Positions 796 to 6,121 of a stretch of 6,121 nt of DNA are shown here, one piece after another (the stretch's first letter is position 1; the number at the start of each line of letters is the position of its first letter). This stretch comes from a virus. Its lineage: Duplodnaviria > Heunggongvirae > Uroviricota > Caudoviricetes. Both the position numbers and the translations under genes were made by a program. The stretch is from IMG/VR virus record IMGVR_UViG_2609459832_000013; one strand, written 5' to 3'. A model generated the notes under the pieces. That model searched no databases. It saw only the letters and a program-made list of their open reading frames with translations, and had not been told where the DNA came from.

Positions 796-1006
796 TGAAA
801 TAGTTAACGCGAATTGTACTTGCTCTTTCAGTTGCTTTCAGAATACGCGTTGAAACTGCTGGCGGTAATTTGGTATTCCATTTATTAAAATCATGCCCGG
901 GAAAGTACTCTTCGAAAATACTTTTAACTGCAGACTCGCCTATTGAAATGCTGCTTACCATGCGATTTTGATAAAGGCATTTAGCAATAAGAGTTGATTT
1001 TAACAT
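773..1006 (-). CDS. Hypothetical protein (77 aa) on the opposite strand, convergent with and overlapping the 3' end of the 135-aa gene by 23 bp
   Basis: On the minus strand the start reads CCTCAGGAGGGTGA-ATG: a consensus AGGAGG Shine-Dalgarno with a 4-nt spacer before ATG (complement of 1004-1006); stop is the complement of 773-775. It is the only credible minus-strand gene in the window and is AT-rich like its partner. Confidence 0.5.
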   Translation of the reverse strand: MLKSTLIAKCLYQNRMVSSISIGESAVKSIFEEYFPGHDFNKWNTKLPPAVSTRILKATERASTIRVNYFIKDLWDL

Positions 1007-1313
1007 TCACCCTCCTGAGGGTTGGTAATTAAGGAGTTCTCCACGGGTGAACATCCGGCACTGACAGTTTACTGAAAGGATATATCCCTGAAAAGTCAGG
1101 GCATAACACGAAAGCGTACGGCGAAGGCCTTCACCTATGAGGCTTGTCGTTAAATTTAATTCGACCGTACGCTTCCGGTTGTGGCAATCCGCGAAATGGC
1201 GCGGCGGTAAGTATGGCGGGGTTATTCCTTCCCCGTTGAGGACACCGGGTTGTCAGGTTGACCATACGCTTAAGTGACAACCCCGCTGCAACAACCCATG
1301 TTGATTACCTTTT

Positions 1314-1353
1314 GGCGGGTATCCGTTTTTTGTTTTCCCTTGTGATACCCGCC
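1314..1353 (+). terminator. Candidate intrinsic-terminator-like hairpin: 10-bp perfect GC-rich stem with a 20-nt loop
   Basis: GGCGGGTATC (1314-1323) pairs perfectly with GATACCCGCC (1344-1353). On the + strand it is followed by CCTTTTAAAG, a short T tract only. The large loop and weak T tract make terminator function uncertain. Confidence 0.25.
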
Positions 1354-1363
1354 CCTTTTAAAG

Positions 1364-1527
1364 TGAATTTTGTGATGCGGTGAATGCGGCTCAGCGCACG
1401 CGGAACAGTTAAAACAAGGCCAGTTGACTTCCGTATTGGTTCTTATGGGTGGGTTCTCTGTATCCGGCGTTAATTGTTAACTGGTTAACGTCACCTGGAG
1501 GCACCAGGCACCGCATCACAAAATTCA
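1364..1527. repeat. Perfect 19-bp inverted repeat whose arms flank a 126-bp segment
   Basis: Left arm TGAATTTTGTGATGCGGTG (1364-1382) is the exact reverse complement of right arm CACCGCATCACAAAATTCA (1509-1527). A tandem near-copy TGAATGCGG (1381-1389) abuts the left arm. The right arm ends 6 nt before the GAGGA Shine-Dalgarno (1533-1537) of the gene starting at 1545. Confidence 0.9.
1469..1489. promoter_or_regulatory. Three direct GTTAA(C) half-site repeats, operator-like
   Basis: GTTAA at 1469-1473, 1476-1480 and 1484-1488 (spacings 7 and 8 bp), inside the segment bounded by the 19-bp inverted repeat. A near-identical two-repeat copy CGTTAATGGTTAAC lies at 360-373, upstream of the ATG at 388. 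Confidence 0.2.
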
Positions 1528-1544
1528 TTGTTGAGGACGCGATA

Positions 1545-1733
1545 ATGGAAACGTTATTACCAAACGTTAATACGTCTGAAGGTTGTTTTGAAATTGGTGT
1601 CACTATCAGTAACCCAGTATTTACTGAAGATGCCATTAACAAGAGAAAACAAGAACGGGAGCTATTAAATAAAATATGCATTGTTTCAATGCTGGCCCGT
1701 TTACGCCTGATGCAAAAAGGATGCTGGCAATGA
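1545..1733 (+). CDS. Hypothetical small protein (62 aa)
   Basis: Internal start of the 1449..1733 track ORF. ATG at 1545 is preceded by GAGGA (1533-1537) with a 7-nt spacer, whereas the ATG at 1449 has no Shine-Dalgarno and would read through the inverted repeat and GTTAA repeats. Stop TGA at 1731-1733 overlaps the next start (ATGA). Confidence 0.5.
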   Translation: METLLPNVNTSEGCFEIGVTISNPVFTEDAINKRKQERELLNKICIVSMLARLRLMQKGCWQ

Positions 1734-1933
1734 ATACTACATTTGCACTTGTTCTGACGGTTTTTCTTGTTTCCGGTGAACCGGTTGACATGGTTACTGG
1801 CGTATACGGCTCAATGAAAGAATGCATGGTTGCCGCAGCGGAACAGAAAATTCCCGGTAACTGTTATCCGGTCGATAAAGTTATTCACATGGATAATAAC
1901 GAAATCCCGGCAGGACTTAAAACAGCACCGTAA
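1730..1933 (+). CDS. Hypothetical small protein (67 aa) with a hydrophobic N-terminal segment (possible signal peptide or membrane anchor) and two cysteines
   Basis: ATG at 1730 overlaps the upstream stop (ATGA at 1730-1733), with AAGGA at 1716-1720; an alternative ATG lies at 1721. The N-terminus reads MNTTFALVLTVFLVSG. Stop TAA at 1931-1933. Confidence 0.5.
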   Translation: MNTTFALVLTVFLVSGEPVDMVTGVYGSMKECMVAAAEQKIPGNCYPVDKVIHMDNNEIPAGLKTAP

Positions 1934-2013
1934 TTAATATCCGGTTTCATTTTTATATGCCAGCAATGGCAGGGATTTGTTCACCCTTAAATCTGTAATG
2001 AGGTTAAAACAAA

Positions 2014-4485
2014 ATGAGTAAAGTCTTTATTTGCGCCGCCATTCCGGACGAACAGGCAATAAAGGAAGAAGGTGCAGTCGCTGTAGCCACTGCCATTGAA
2101 GCCGGCGACGAACGTCGCGCCCGTGCCAAATTTACCTGGCAATTCCTGGAGCAATATCCGGCTGCTCAGGACTGCGCTTATAAATTTCTTGTCTGCGAGG
2201 ATAAACCCGGCATGCCCCGCCCTGCCATCGACTCCTGGGATACCGAATATATGCTGGAAAACCGCTGGGATGAGGAAGGCGCTTCCTTTGTCCCGGTCGA
2301 ACCAGAATCCGATCCGATGATCGTCAATTTTGACAAGCTGTCCCTTGAAGTACAGAACGCGGTCCTGGTTAAGTTCGGTACATGTGAAAACATCACCGTT
2401 GATATGGTGATTAGCGCGCAGGAATTGTTGCAGGAAGACATGGCAACATTCGACGGACATATCGTTGAAGCGTTGATGAAAATGCCAGAAGTTAACGCCA
2501 TGTATCCGGAGCTTAAGCTGCATGCCATCGGGTGGGTTAAGCATAAATGTATTCCTGGTGCCAAATGGCCCGAAATTCAGGCAGAGATGCGCATCTGGAA
2601 AAAACGTCGCGAAGGTGAACGCAAGGAAGCCGGAAAATACACGTCTGTTGTTGATCTCGCCCGCGCCAGAGCCAATCAACAGAACACTGAAAATTCAACA
2701 GGAAAAATCAACCCGGTCATTGCTGCCACTCATCGCGAATACAAGCAGACATGGAAAACACTGGATGACGAACTGGCCTACGCTCTCTGGCCTGGTGATG
2801 TGGATGCCGGAAACATTGACGGCAGCATCCATCGCTGGGCAAAAAATGAAGTTATCGACAACGACCGCGAAGACTGGAAGCGTATCTCGGCATCAATGCG
2901 CAAACAGCCTGATGCCCTTCGCTACGACCGCCAGACTATTTTTGGCCTTGTCCGTGAACGTCCGATCGACATTCACAAAGACCCTGTGGCACTGAACAAA
3001 TACATTACTGAATACCTGACTACAAAGGGCGTGTTTGAAGATGAAGGAAGAAATCAGAGCGCAACTGATACTCTCTCGTCGCCAGTACCAGAAACTGATG
3101 CAGTGGAAACGGCAATTCCGGACAACGAAAAAACCGAATGCAAAGTGGAAGTCGAACCATCTGTAGAACGTGAGGGGCCGTTCTACTTCCTCTTCACCGA
3201 CAAGGATGGCGAAAAATACGGTCGCGCAAACAAACTTTCTGGTCTGGATAAGGCGCTGTCTGCCGGGGCTACTGAAATCACGAAAGAAGAATATTTCGCC
3301 CGCAAAAACGGTACATACTCAGGTTCACAACAAAATACTGGTGCATCTGACACGACCGCACAACCAGGGTCAGTAAAAGTTACCGCTGACGAAGTAAACA
3401 ACATTATGCAGGCAGCCAATATCAGCCAGCCTGACGCCGATGAACTGCTTGCAGTATCACGTGGTGAATTTGTTGAAGGGATTAGCGACCCGAATGATCC
3501 GAAATGGGTGAAGGGAATTGAAACCCGCGATTCTGTGAACCAGAACCAGCAAGAAACGGAACAGAACGGCCAGAAAGCGGATCAAAACAGCCCAAATACG
3601 CAACAAAACGAGCCAGAAACGAAACAATCCGAACCAGTAGCGCAACAGGAACCGGAAAAGATCTGCACCGCCTGCGGTCAGACCGGCGGCGGCAACTGCC
3701 CTGATTGTGGCGCGATGATGGGCGACGCAACATACCAGGAAACGTTCGATGACGAGAATCAGGTCGAAGTTCAGGAAGACAATTCGGAGAAAATGGAAGG
3801 CGCTGAACATCCACACAAGGAGAATGCTGGCAGCGCTCAGGACCACGCCAGCGATAGTGAAACTGGCGAGACGGCAGATCCCTTAATTGCGGTGAACAGT
3901 CATCACATTATCACATCCACCAGCAGAGTGTGGACTCACCTGTCGGTCGACCTTGAAACGATGGGAACAAATCCTGATGCACCAATCAACTCTATTGGCG
4001 GTAAATTCTTTGACCCGACAACCGGAGAGATGGGGCCGGAATTCAGCAAAGCTATCGATCTGGAAACATCTGGCGGAATCATCGACCGGAAAACAATAAA
4101 GTGGTGGGCGAAGCGATCACGCGAAGCGCAATCTGCCATTTTTACCGATGAAATCCCGTTAGATGACGCTCTACTGCAATTACGGGAATTTATCAACGAA
4201 AACTCCGGCGAAAGCTTTGTCCAGATCTGGGGAAATGGAGCCAACTTCGACAATGTGATTTTACGCCGTTCATATGAACGGCAGGGGATCCCCTGCCCGT
4301 GGCGTTACTACAACGATCGCGATGTGCGCACAATTGTTGAACTGGGAAATTCCATTGGCTTTGATGTCAGAATGGCTATTCCATTCGAAGGTGTACCCCA
4401 CAATGCACTTGATGATGCACGTCACCAGGCAAAACAAGTTTCAGCAATCTGGCAAAAACTGATCCCAAGTCAGGCTGATTTTTAA
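2014..4485 (+). CDS. Large prophage exonuclease (823 aa): RecE-like (exonuclease VIII-like) non-catalytic scaffold fused to a C-terminal DnaQ-like DEDDh 3'-5' exonuclease domain
   Basis: Single 2472-nt ORF with TGAGG upstream of ATG 2014. The C-terminal ~180 aa carry the three DEDDh motifs: LSVDLETMG (3940-3966), WGNGANFD (4228-4251) and HNALDDARH (4399-4425). A Q/N/E-rich linker (~3535-3660) precedes a C-x2-C-x7-C-x2-C zinc ribbon (3664-3708). The central segment (ASRGEFVEGISDPNDPKWVKG, CxxC region) resembles my recollection of E. coli Rac RecE; this is not verified by alignment. Confidence 0.9.
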   Translation: MSKVFICAAIPDEQAIKEEGAVAVATAIEAGDERRARAKFTWQFLEQYPAAQDCAYKFLVCEDKPGMPRPAIDSWDTEYMLENRWDEEGASFVPVEPESDPMIVNFDKLSLEVQNAVLVKFGTCENITVDMVISAQELLQEDMATFDGHIVEALMKMPEVNAMYPELKLHAIGWVKHKCIPGAKWPEIQAEMRIWKKRREGERKEAGKYTSVVDLARARANQQNTENSTGKINPVIAATHREYKQTWKTLDDELAYALWPGDVDAGNIDGSIHRWAKNEVIDNDREDWKRISASMRKQPDALRYDRQTIFGLVRERPIDIHKDPVALNKYITEYLTTKGVFEDEGRNQSATDTLSSPVPETDAVETAIPDNEKTECKVEVEPSVEREGPFYFLFTDKDGEKYGRANKLSGLDKALSAGATEITKEEYFARKNGTYSGSQQNTGASDTTAQPGSVKVTADEVNNIMQAANISQPDADELLAVSRGEFVEGISDPNDPKWVKGIETRDSVNQNQQETEQNGQKADQNSPNTQQNEPETKQSEPVAQQEPEKICTACGQTGGGNCPDCGAMMGDATYQETFDDENQVEVQEDNSEKMEGAEHPHKENAGSAQDHASDSETGETADPLIAVNSHHIITSTSRVWTHLSVDLETMGTNPDAPINSIGGKFFDPTTGEMGPEFSKAIDLETSGGIIDRKTIKWWAKRSREAQSAIFTDEIPLDDALLQLREFINENSGESFVQIWGNGANFDNVILRRSYERQGIPCPWRYYNDRDVRTIVELGNSIGFDVRMAIPFEGVPHNALDDARHQAKQVSAIWQKLIPSQADF

Positions 4486-4496
4486 TGTTCAACCAT

Positions 4497-4528
4497 CGCC
4501 GGTTGTGACTGGTATTCTGCAACCGGCG
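4497..4528. repeat. 9-bp inverted repeat (hairpin) in the exonuclease-xis intergenic region
   Basis: CGCCGGTTG (4497-4505) pairs with CAACCGGCG (4520-4528) around a 14-nt loop. No U tract follows on the + strand, so it is not a canonical intrinsic terminator. Confidence 0.3.
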
Positions 4529-4554
4529 CTCATCTGAAGTAAGAGATAAAAGCA

Positions 4555-4806
4555 ATGAGCGAAGTAATCATGATTGTCTCTCCCGGTAAATGGGTATCCG
4601 AAGAACAGCTAATTGCACTGAAAGGAATAAAAAAGGGAACGCTAAAAAAAGCCAGGGAAAAATCGTTTATGGAAGGAAGGGAGTATAAGCATGTCGCCCA
4701 TGACTGTATGCCATGGGATAACAGCCCATGCTTTTACAACCTGGAAGAAATTGACCGCTGGATTGAGCGCCAGGCATCGGCAAGACCAAGACGTCATCTT
4801 ACCTGA
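4555..4806 (+). CDS. xis: Excisionase-like small DNA-binding protein (83 aa)
   Basis: Small basic ORF directly upstream of the integrase in the same orientation. It contains a G-R-E-Y motif (MEGREYKH) like the lambda Xis DGREY region. The start is uncertain: 4555 has a weak Shine-Dalgarno and an alternative ATG lies at 4570. Confidence 0.7.
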   Translation: MSEVIMIVSPGKWVSEEQLIALKGIKKGTLKKAREKSFMEGREYKHVAHDCMPWDNSPCFYNLEEIDRWIERQASARPRRHLT

Positions 4807-4840
4807 CCAAAAGTAACACTAACCAACGAGAGAAGCTGAA

Positions 4841-6121
4841 ATGAAATATCCGACAGGCGTGGAAAACCATGGAGGGAAATTACGTATCTGGTTTGTTTAT
4901 AAAGGTGTAAGAATCAGGGAAAATCTTGGGGTTCCTGACACGGCAAAAAACAGGCGCATTGCAGGTGAGCTGCGCGCCTCTGTTTGTTACGCAATAAAAA
5001 CTGGTGTTTTCGACTATGCAAAACAGTTTCCCTCCTCACACAATCTGGAAAAATTTGGTGAGGCCCGACAAGATTTAACCATAAAGGAACTGGCTGAAAA
5101 ATTTCTGGCACTGAAAGAAACGGAAGTCGCAAAAACGTCACTCAACACGTACCGTGCCGTCATCAAAAATATTCTGAGCATAATCGGTGAAAAAAATCTT
5201 GCATCGTCGATTAATAAAGAAAAATTGCTGGCGGTACGTAAAGAGTTACTTACTGGATACCAGATCCCCAAAAGTAATTATATTGTTACGCAACCGGGGA
5301 GATCGGCTGTCACCGTAAATAATTACATGACAAATCTTTACGCCGTGTTCCAGTTTGGTGTTGATAACGGTTACCTGGCAGATAATCCGTTTAAGGGGAT
5401 CTCGCCATTAAAGGAATCAAGAACCATTCCTGATCCTCTTTCACGGGAGGAATTTATCCGTCTTATCGACGCCTGCAGAAATCAGCAGGCCAAAAATTTA
5501 TGGTGTGTTTCTGTTTATACTGGCGTTCGCCCTGGTGAGCTGTGTGCACTTGGGTGGGAGGACATAGATCTGAAAAATGGAACAATGATGATCAGGAGAA
5601 ATTTAGCAAAAGATCGTTTTACGGTACCGAAAACACAGGCTGGTACCAATCGGGTAATTCACCTTATCAAGCCTGCAATCGACGCTCTCAGGAGTCAGAT
5701 GACACTAACGAGGCTGAGCAAAGAACATATTATTGACGTTCACCTCAGAGAGTTTGGCAGAACGGAAAAACAAAAATGCACATTTGTTTTTCAACCTGAA
5801 GTGTCAGCGAGAGTAAAAAATTATGGTGACCATTTCACCGTTGACTCAATAAGGCAGATGTGGGACGCAGCGATAAAGCGCGCTGGCCTCCGCCACCGCA
5901 AATCATATCAGTCGAGACATACTTATGCCTGCTGGTCGCTGACAGCCGGTGCCAACCCGGCATTCATAGCAAACCAGATGGGACATGCAGATGCGCAAAT
6001 GGTGTTTCAGGTATACGGGAAATGGATGTCTGAAAACAATAATGCACAGGTAGCCCTGTTAAATACACAGCTAAGCGAGTTTGCCCCAACCATGCCCCAA
6101 AACGAGGCGGCGCAAAATTAA
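4841..6121 (+). CDS. int: Phage tyrosine integrase (site-specific recombinase, 426 aa), IntR/Rac-like lambdoid family
   Basis: ATG at 4841 preceded by GAGAGAAG; stop TAA at 6119-6121. The C-terminal catalytic region carries tyrosine-recombinase hallmarks: TGVRPGE (Arg I), SRHTYACW (box II Arg), QMGH (His) and the nucleophile Tyr in QVYGKW. The N-terminus (MKYPTGVENHGGKLRIWF) looks like an arm-type DNA-binding domain. Confidence 0.95.
   Translation: MKYPTGVENHGGKLRIWFVYKGVRIRENLGVPDTAKNRRIAGELRASVCYAIKTGVFDYAKQFPSSHNLEKFGEARQDLTIKELAEKFLALKETEVAKTSLNTYRAVIKNILSIIGEKNLASSINKEKLLAVRKELLTGYQIPKSNYIVTQPGRSAVTVNNYMTNLYAVFQFGVDNGYLADNPFKGISPLKESRTIPDPLSREEFIRLIDACRNQQAKNLWCVSVYTGVRPGELCALGWEDIDLKNGTMMIRRNLAKDRFTVPKTQAGTNRVIHLIKPAIDALRSQMTLTRLSKEHIIDVHLREFGRTEKQKCTFVFQPEVSARVKNYGDHFTVDSIRQMWDAAIKRAGLRHRKSYQSRHTYACWSLTAGANPAFIANQMGHADAQMVFQVYGKWMSENNNAQVALLNTQLSEFAPTMPQNEAAQN

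Follow-up and report, generated by a model that had tools for sequence, protein, structure and literature searches.

A YdfE-type prophage protein with a RecE-like central scaffold and a C-terminal DEDDh exonuclease domain of the DexA/Rv2179c-like family

RecE of the Rac prophage is composed of an N-terminal Exonuc_VIII region, a central region and a C-terminal PD-(D/E)XK 5'-3' nuclease domain, and its gene is followed by recT; the function of the RecE N-terminal region is not known, and it is dispensable for nuclease activity (PMC11611040). Phage T4 DexA (exonuclease A; PDB 8KEL) is a 3'-5' DNA exonuclease of the DEDDh type in which W152 and D169 have been linked to the reading of 5-hydroxymethylcytosine (5hmC) and D90 to tetramerisation; its plasmid-borne Escherichia coli homologue EcD, which has Ala at the latter position, is reported to digest 5hmC-containing T4 DNA and to protect cells against T4 (Kang et al. 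2025, PMC12153337). A further relative, YdfE (b1577) of E. coli K-12, is a pseudogene of the Qin prophage. We have analysed a 6,121-nucleotide stretch of Caudoviricetes DNA (IMG/VR record IMGVR_UViG_2609459832_000013), referred to below at its full length as the window, and in particular its gene at 2014–4485, the product of which joins parts resembling all three of these systems. From the letters of the same DNA, the original prediction had described this product as a RecE-like scaffold carrying a DEDDh 3'-5' exonuclease and having no annealase partner. The features of the gene and its product on which our argument rests are as follows.

2014–4485, + strand: YdfE-type exonuclease gene, complete, an intact allele of K-12 ydfE (open reading frame of 823 residues; PHROG 2082 match)
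2014–2784, + strand: N-terminal module, residues 1–257 (YdfE_N plus YdfE_C), not RecE-like
2797–3888, + strand: central scaffold, residues 262–625, homologous to RecE 278–591 (BLASTP, NCBIfam PRK09709)
3457–3507, + strand: most conserved scaffold motif, SRGEFVEGISDPNDPKW, residues 482–498 (from 16 diverse scaffold proteins)
3511–3663, + strand: Q/N-rich acidic linker, residues 500–550 (33% Q+N, 20% D+E)
3664–3708, + strand: CxxC-x7-CxxC zinc-ribbon motif, residues 551–565, common to RecE (regular-expression match CTACGQTGGGNCPDC)
3934–4452, + strand: DEDDh 3'-5' exonuclease domain, residues 641–813, DexA/Rv2179c-like (Pfam PF16473)
3946–3960, + strand: Exo motif I, VDLET (D646, E648), invariant with T4 DexA
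4234–4251, + strand: Exo motif II, NGANFD (D746), invariant with T4 DexA
4399–4416, + strand: Exo motif III, HNALDD (H796-x4-D801, 'h' type), invariant with T4 DexA

By every sequence criterion tested, the product of 2014–4485 is a member of the DEDDh Rv2179c/DexA-like family. Residues 641–813 match the full length of the Pfam Rv2179c-like model PF16473 (positions 1–177 of 177) with E = 1.1e-61 and 208 bits (cutoff 27), and the five DEDDh residues stand in canonical order and are invariant across an alignment of T4 DexA and five prophage homologues. The C-terminus had been assigned from its motifs to the DEDDh and not the PD-(D/E)XK type, and this assignment is borne out: the PD-(D/E)XK domain (Pfam DUF3799), which K-12 RecE has at residues 615–850, is absent from the window protein, and alignment to RecE and the Pfam models sets the domain boundaries at residues 641–813 and places the domain outside the canonical RecE nuclease fold. 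Searched against the PDB by sequence, the whole protein matched only T4 DexA (8KEL, E = 4e-4), which belongs to the same DEDDh subfamily and aligns at all five catalytic residues. A profile of seven prophage domains, built without DexA, found DexA with E = 6e-15 and nothing else at a significant level; no exoribonuclease, Rv2179c included, was retrieved in these PDB sequence and profile searches. With 82% identity to its counterpart in phage Tritos, the domain represents a somewhat divergent allele.

The part of the protein upstream of the nuclease had been taken as a whole to be RecE-like. This holds for residues 262–625, which align by BLASTP with K-12 RecE 278–591 at 38% identity overall (E = 2e-60), the identity being very high from about residue 470 onward, zinc ribbon included. 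The ribbon residues, C551-x2-C554-x7-C562-x2-C565, align with CNACGQTGGDNCPDC of RecE, and both the ribbon and the acidic Q/N-rich linker before it are found as predicted; the scaffold motif just upstream of the linker has near-invariant A/R/G/G/I/S/D/W columns in the 16 diverse scaffold proteins. It does not hold for residues 1–257, which have no similarity to the RecE N-terminus, lack the Pfam Exonuc_VIII domain (PF06630) found at RecE 2–178 and are of YdfE type, with 91% identity to K-12 YdfE over 256 residues (the labels PF27430 YdfE_N and PF27432 YdfE_C were taken from precomputed annotations of close homologues). At the level of DNA, homology to K-12 recE is confined to 3438–3887 (residues 475–625, 75%) and stops exactly before the catalytic domain. 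The score against the RecE equivalog NCBIfam NF007259 (PRK09709) is 268.8 bits, compared with a cutoff of 1269, and the match covers only model positions 261–603 of 877. Four features set the window protein outside the RecE family, with which it has one region in common: it scores below the equivalog cutoff, lacks both the nuclease domain and the N-terminal domain of RecE, and has no recT partner.

The relationship between the type of C-terminal domain and recT was surveyed by searching one genome per GTDB species for the pattern of the scaffold motif. This gave 29 loci spanning Escherichia, Citrobacter, Atlantibacter, Leclercia, Kluyvera, Enterobacter and others, to which loci from other routes were added (a broad alignment of 27 scaffold sequences was too divergent to serve as a search seed, and a motif-centred alignment worked). 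K-12 RecT alone, as a single-sequence query, failed to find divergent RecT genes, and RecT was therefore detected with a hidden Markov model (HMM) iterated from K-12 RecT and a Pfam-confirmed divergent RecT; Bet, Erf and the Rad52-like domain were sought by single-sequence searches. The counts were as follows.

PD-(D/E)XK scaffold loci: 22, recT immediately 3' in 22 (three seem frameshifted)
DEDDh genomic and phage loci: 10, recT immediately 3' in 0
DEDDh IMG/VR loci, the 80 best: 80, recT immediately 3' in 0
Rad52-like loci: 2, recT immediately 3' in 0

The pattern is without exception in the surveyed loci: recT follows the PD-(D/E)XK loci (22/22) and none of the DEDDh loci (0/90), and a Sipho_Gp157 gene follows the Rad52-like loci. 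Searches for Bet, Erf and the Rad52-like domain gave no match in any of the 90 DEDDh loci, and there was no annealase family among the 25 most frequent of the 51 Pfam families found in 94 open reading frames of eight DEDDh loci. The absence of recT, bet or erf between the gene and xis/int, as originally predicted, extends to the whole window, and none of the three is annotated in the complete early regions of phage Tritos and of the prophage of E. coli strain UTAK-3; an annealase hidden elsewhere in the early region was considered and rejected from these annotations and the scans of the DEDDh loci. Perfect tracking of recT with the C-terminal type in the loci examined suggests a joint exchange of catalytic domain and partner as a single cassette, and no description of this exception-free link was found in the literature searched. 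Loci of Rac-like and other contexts likewise have an excisionase-like gene and an integrase directly after the DEDDh gene. The xis/int type of the window follows the exonuclease gene in only 17 of the 80 IMG/VR loci (L043–L122, near-identical genes), the others having other integration modules, so that the exonuclease gene travels with several such modules. The original prediction that the protein is probably not a classical exonuclease/annealase recombinase is therefore well founded, and its reasoning on polarity and the missing annealase is sound, given the DEDDh C-terminus, a swap located exactly at the catalytic-domain boundary and the systematic absence of an annealase.

The scaffold is itself the constant part of a mosaic family. 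An earlier homologue search had given only fragments at 89% identity or more, of no use for assessing diversity, and the central region was hence searched against 50%-identity representatives; 147 proteins were found at E ≤ 0.001 and were typed by local domain searches and Pfam. Their N-termini are of RecE type (Exonuc_VIII) or YdfE type. Their C-termini are PD-(D/E)XK (DUF3799), DEDDh, or a third domain of ~290 residues with the motif KKSLTDAxKKALSxLGFxADV, which is a Rad52-fold annealase-like domain. Every combination of N- and C-terminal type was seen, including the following.

P0125, P0140, P0212, P0254, P0255: N-terminus Exonuc_VIII, C-terminus Rv2179c-like (DEDDh)
P0148, P0203, P0215: N-terminus YdfE, C-terminus PD-(D/E)XK
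P0173, P0180, P0191, P0251: N-terminus YdfE, C-terminus of the third type
P0208, P0250: N-terminus Exonuc_VIII, C-terminus of the third type

Annotation by similarity to the N-terminal or central part of RecE is unreliable, because a 3'-5' nuclease or an annealase-like domain can sit on the same scaffold; no description of the Rad52-fold variant annotated as an exonuclease was found in the literature searched. In one representative, P0161 (703 residues), RecE residues 1–528 (Exonuc_VIII and central region) are fused straight to a RecT domain, the PD-(D/E)XK domain having been deleted.

Selection on the gene was estimated from the ratio of nonsynonymous to synonymous substitution rates (dN/dS) against four orthologues, taken from Tritos, E. 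albertii and E. ruysiae. The value is about 0.26 for the whole gene, 0.17–0.24 for the N-terminal module, 0.31–0.46 for the central region and 0.17 for the DEDDh domain, and all three modules are under purifying selection. No interruption of the 2.5-kb frame was seen in 78 of 80 viral contigs. From the dN/dS values and the uninterrupted frames, the idea that the gene is a pseudogene was rejected. E. albertii NBRC 107761 has two copies, one intact (L011) and a second (L013, 7968–8548) that is probably a frameshifted pseudogene, since its DEDDh domain is split over two reading frames.

The original prediction had implied that such a gene is rare or novel, and this did not stand. A match to the gene occurs in 4,786 of 5,426 complete E. 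coli genomes and at 80% coverage or more in 3,526 (about 65%), at a median of two and a maximum of ten places per genome, and at least 585 stretches in IMG/VR encode relatives. Identity to full-length copies is 90–98% overall at the nucleotide level: it is 98.5% to the 'exonuclease' of strain UTAK-3 (WP_097343114.1) and ~90% to copies in plaque-forming or induced phages, including Tritos, mEp460, PhiR42_1, HannyBb and the PPompW prophages of enterohaemorrhagic E. coli. The match to PHROG 2082 ("exonuclease") spans residues 1–823 of 823, Pfam families exist for the N-terminal module (YdfE_N and YdfE_C), and PGAP names the copies "exonuclease", "3'-5' exonuclease" or "3'-5' exoribonuclease domain-containing protein". 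The gene is therefore already known, being catalogued, correctly named by PGAP and extremely common, and is not new; the literature searched contained no study of the protein itself. In older records the copies are called "exodeoxyribonuclease VIII", a label that is still frequent and that implies a RecE-like 5'-3' recombination nuclease, which is impossible for the window protein.

As a whole, these observations are best explained by an active delayed-early 3'-5' exonuclease of DNA ends that is tethered by its scaffold and is not part of a SynExo system, a reading to which we give a probability of roughly 0.6. The protein would be made after induction or infection, alongside the other delayed-early genes, and the scaffold it has in common with RecE would direct it to its substrate. 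There it would act as a metal-dependent 3'-to-5' exonuclease on free 3' DNA ends and, like DexA in T4, would most likely shorten or destroy the 3' ends and tails of linear molecules, be they broken host DNA, DNA of a competitor or intermediates of recombination; recombination of the phage itself would fall to the RecA-dependent pathways of the host. A role as a SynExo recombinase is not expected, because the predicted polarity is wrong for making 3' tails and there is no annealase. DNA is favoured over RNA as the substrate because DexA is the closest solved relative by sequence. Three biological uses are candidates: the protein could degrade DNA of the host or of a rival, trim recombination intermediates that host RecA pathways go on to process, or exclude modified phages. 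Each of these taken singly is much less probable than the general reading. Among the cargo genes of the leftward early (PL) operon the gene stands last, and a simple consensus scan, which is crude, found no sigma-70-like promoter on the + strand in 1000–4900; both points are consistent with a transcript from PL that includes the other genes of the operon.

Several points weigh against this reading. Polarity, the choice of DNA or RNA as substrate and expression timing are predictions, and PF16473 takes its Pfam name from an exoribonuclease, Rv2179c. The very high prevalence, cryptic prophages included, could indicate a host-beneficial role in the lysogen rather than a role in the lytic cycle, and an internal or unusual promoter could lie beyond the reach of a simple sigma-70 scan. 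A very divergent annealase could have been overlooked, RecT having been sought with an HMM of our own, the other annealases with single sequences, and the Pfam results covering the 25 most frequent of 51 families. Many of the surveyed loci are close relatives, so that the survey counts do not represent independent events.

A wider and more tentative idea is that the RecE/YdfE scaffold may be a general targeting platform of enterobacterial temperate phages for interchangeable DNA-end effectors, the DEDDh version being the commonest in E. coli and having an early function not yet described. The effectors could be the 5'-3' nuclease with RecT, the 3'-5' nuclease and the fused Rad52-fold annealase. 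If this were so, textbook RecE/RecT would be only one of several uses of the scaffold, and the function of the DEDDh version could be 3'-end destruction of host or rival DNA, or counter-defence. The scaffold common to RecE and the window protein is itself unexplained, since the function of the RecE N-terminal region is not known; its role, if worked out, would also inform the N-terminal two thirds of RecE, a part that has no explanation so far and that improves linear-linear recombineering.

An alternative that we consider unlikely is a prophage defence or superinfection-exclusion nuclease (HREX-like) that would degrade incoming 5hmC-containing phage DNA and so protect the lysogen. It draws support from membership of the same DexA/Rv2179c family as EcD, from the great frequency of the gene in E. 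coli, where a genome can have several copies, from intact reading frames under purifying selection, and from the standalone homologues that occupy the same slot in ST64B and PhiR47_1. The position of the gene at the distal end of a repressor-controlled PL operon, with no promoter-like site on the + strand in 1000–4900 in the simple scan, argues the other way, as do the residues at the DexA positions concerned: W152 is replaced by Tyr and D169 by Ser, and D90 is kept as Asp, in an alignment at 25% identity that is uncertain near D169. EcD is, moreover, a different, standalone protein, and a search of PADLOC-DB 2.0 gave 0 families at E ≤ 0.01. The possibility that EcD is the window protein was rejected, the EcD primers in the supplement of Kang et al. 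encoding a protein that starts MIDTET.

Less likely again is a 3'-5' exonuclease of RNA or oligonucleotides like Rv2179c, which would act on nanoRNAs, RNA 3' ends or linear signalling oligonucleotides, for example in anti-defence or RNA turnover. PF16473 is defined as '3'-5' exoribonuclease Rv2179c-like' and PGAP applies this name to many copies; against this, the searches by sequence retrieved a single solved relative, the DNA exonuclease DexA (profile E = 6e-15), and not Rv2179c, and the other partners to which the scaffold is fused are a DNA exonuclease and a Rad52-fold annealase-like domain. A classical recombination exonuclease paired with an annealase from another part of the phage genome or from the host is very improbable. 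The gene does sit in the exo/bet or recE/recT slot, between kil/dicB-type genes and xis, and has the RecE central region; the DEDDh fold, however, implies 3'-5' polarity, which would remove and not create 3' tails, neither the 90 loci nor the early regions as annotated in Tritos and UTAK-3 yielded a RecT, Bet, Erf or Rad52-like gene, and the score against the RecE equivalog is far under its cutoff. Least credible of all is an evolutionary leftover, a functionless chimera from illegitimate or homologous exchange between prophages, for which the clear mosaic with junctions at module boundaries, the IS2-truncated remnant in K-12 and the frameshifted E. albertii copy might be cited, but which is opposed by the low dN/dS of the nuclease domain (0.17) and N-terminal module (0.17–0.24), the uninterrupted frame in 78/80 contigs, the retention of all catalytic residues and the presence of the gene in plaque-forming phages such as mEp460 and Tritos.

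The window covers the distal portion of the leftward early operon in a lambdoid prophage of Qin/mEp460 type; the gene order of such a prophage is cI, ydfA/B/C, dicB, ydfD, exonuclease, xis, int. The matching gene order is annotated in the UTAK-3 prophage (98% identical, beside rspB), in phage Tritos and in K-12 Qin. The other features of the window are as follows.

Window start: end of ydfB (inferred from the 98% match to UTAK-3; missing from the list of open reading frames)
147–365: ydfC
388–795: open reading frame of 135 residues, phrog_1363, function not assigned
773–1006, - strand: open reading frame of 77 residues, convergent with and overlapping the 135-residue frame
1545–1733, + strand: dicB, upstream gene in the same leftward early operon (Pfam DicB, E = 1.4e-39; K-12 Qin order)
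1730–1933, + strand: ydfD-like DUF1482 gene, directly 5' of the exonuclease gene (Pfam DUF1482, E = 1e-22; PGAP in UTAK-3)
4555–4806, + strand: excisionase of xisR type, immediately 3' of the exonuclease gene (Pfam DUF1233, E = 1.8e-30; PGAP name xisR)
4841–6121, + strand: tyrosine integrase, with the prophage end next (rspB side, Qin site; Pfam Arm-DNA-bind_2 and Phage_integrase; UTAK-3/K-12 context)

The exonuclease gene has a GAGG Shine-Dalgarno sequence 11 nucleotides 5' of its ATG and is followed by xis and int with no gene between, again as predicted. A perfect 8-bp inverted repeat, GCCGGTTG ... CAACCGGC with a spacer of 15 nucleotides, lies at 4498–4528, in the 69 nucleotides that separate xis from the stop codon of the exonuclease gene, and is not followed by a T-run. 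The interval between ydfC and dicB (366–1544) is unlike K-12 Qin and Tritos, and the two open reading frames found there (135 and 77 residues) are hypothetical in UTAK-3. Canonical DicF is missing, there being only a partial match of 19 nucleotides at 1310–1329 beside a terminator-like hairpin at 1314–1327, and no Rfam family matched the window at gathering thresholds. In the same interval, 1343–1529 is 79% identical to Rac DNA just 5' of kilR (K-12 1418250–1418422, beside the kilS small RNA), and 1366–1522 gives a sub-threshold Rfam match to the small RNA STnc100 (33.7 bits compared with a gathering threshold of 47, E = 2.4e-5); 1343–1529 may be a leader or small-RNA element 5' of dicB. Outside the window, the UTAK-3 prophage (L002, 3396–4614) has genes for a scabin-related ADP-ribosyltransferase and a subtilase-family AB5 toxin B-subunit beside its lysis genes, which are possible toxin cargo.

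Among proteins of solved structure, the window protein lies closest by catalytic domain to T4 DexA, at ~25% identity and without the extra loops of DexA. DexA and EcD are standalone proteins of ~190–230 residues, whereas the domain described here forms the C-terminus of a protein of 823 residues. Sb30 of Salmonella phage ST64B and its counterpart in phage PhiR47_1, called 'exodeoxyribonuclease VIII', are likewise standalone DEDDh proteins (189–190 residues); they are 53–56% identical to the window C-terminal domain and have neither an N-terminal module nor a RecE-like scaffold, yet they occupy the same slot as the last gene before xis/int of the leftward operon. RecE of Rac has the central region 278–591 in common with the window protein, including the SRGEFV.GISDPNDPKW motif and the CxxC-x7-CxxC ribbon, and its gene holds the same position in the leftward early operon, 5' of xis/int; it differs in having an Exonuc_VIII N-terminus, a PD-(D/E)XK 5'-3' nuclease and a following recT, where the window has a YdfE N-terminus, a DEDDh domain and no recT. 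The Rac-like proteins P0125 (805 residues) and P0212 (721 residues) stand between the two, with the same central scaffold and DEDDh C-terminus as the window protein and the RecE type of N-terminus (PF06630); like the window gene, theirs are followed directly by an excisionase-like gene and an integrase and not by recT. K-12 ydfE is the same gene in the same place (dicB, ydfD, ydfE, [xis], int, beside rspB), reduced to an N-terminal fragment cut by IS2, in contrast to the full 823 residues here. From this match in position to K-12 Qin and the 91% identity to YdfE, the window gene is therefore the intact allele of ydfE.

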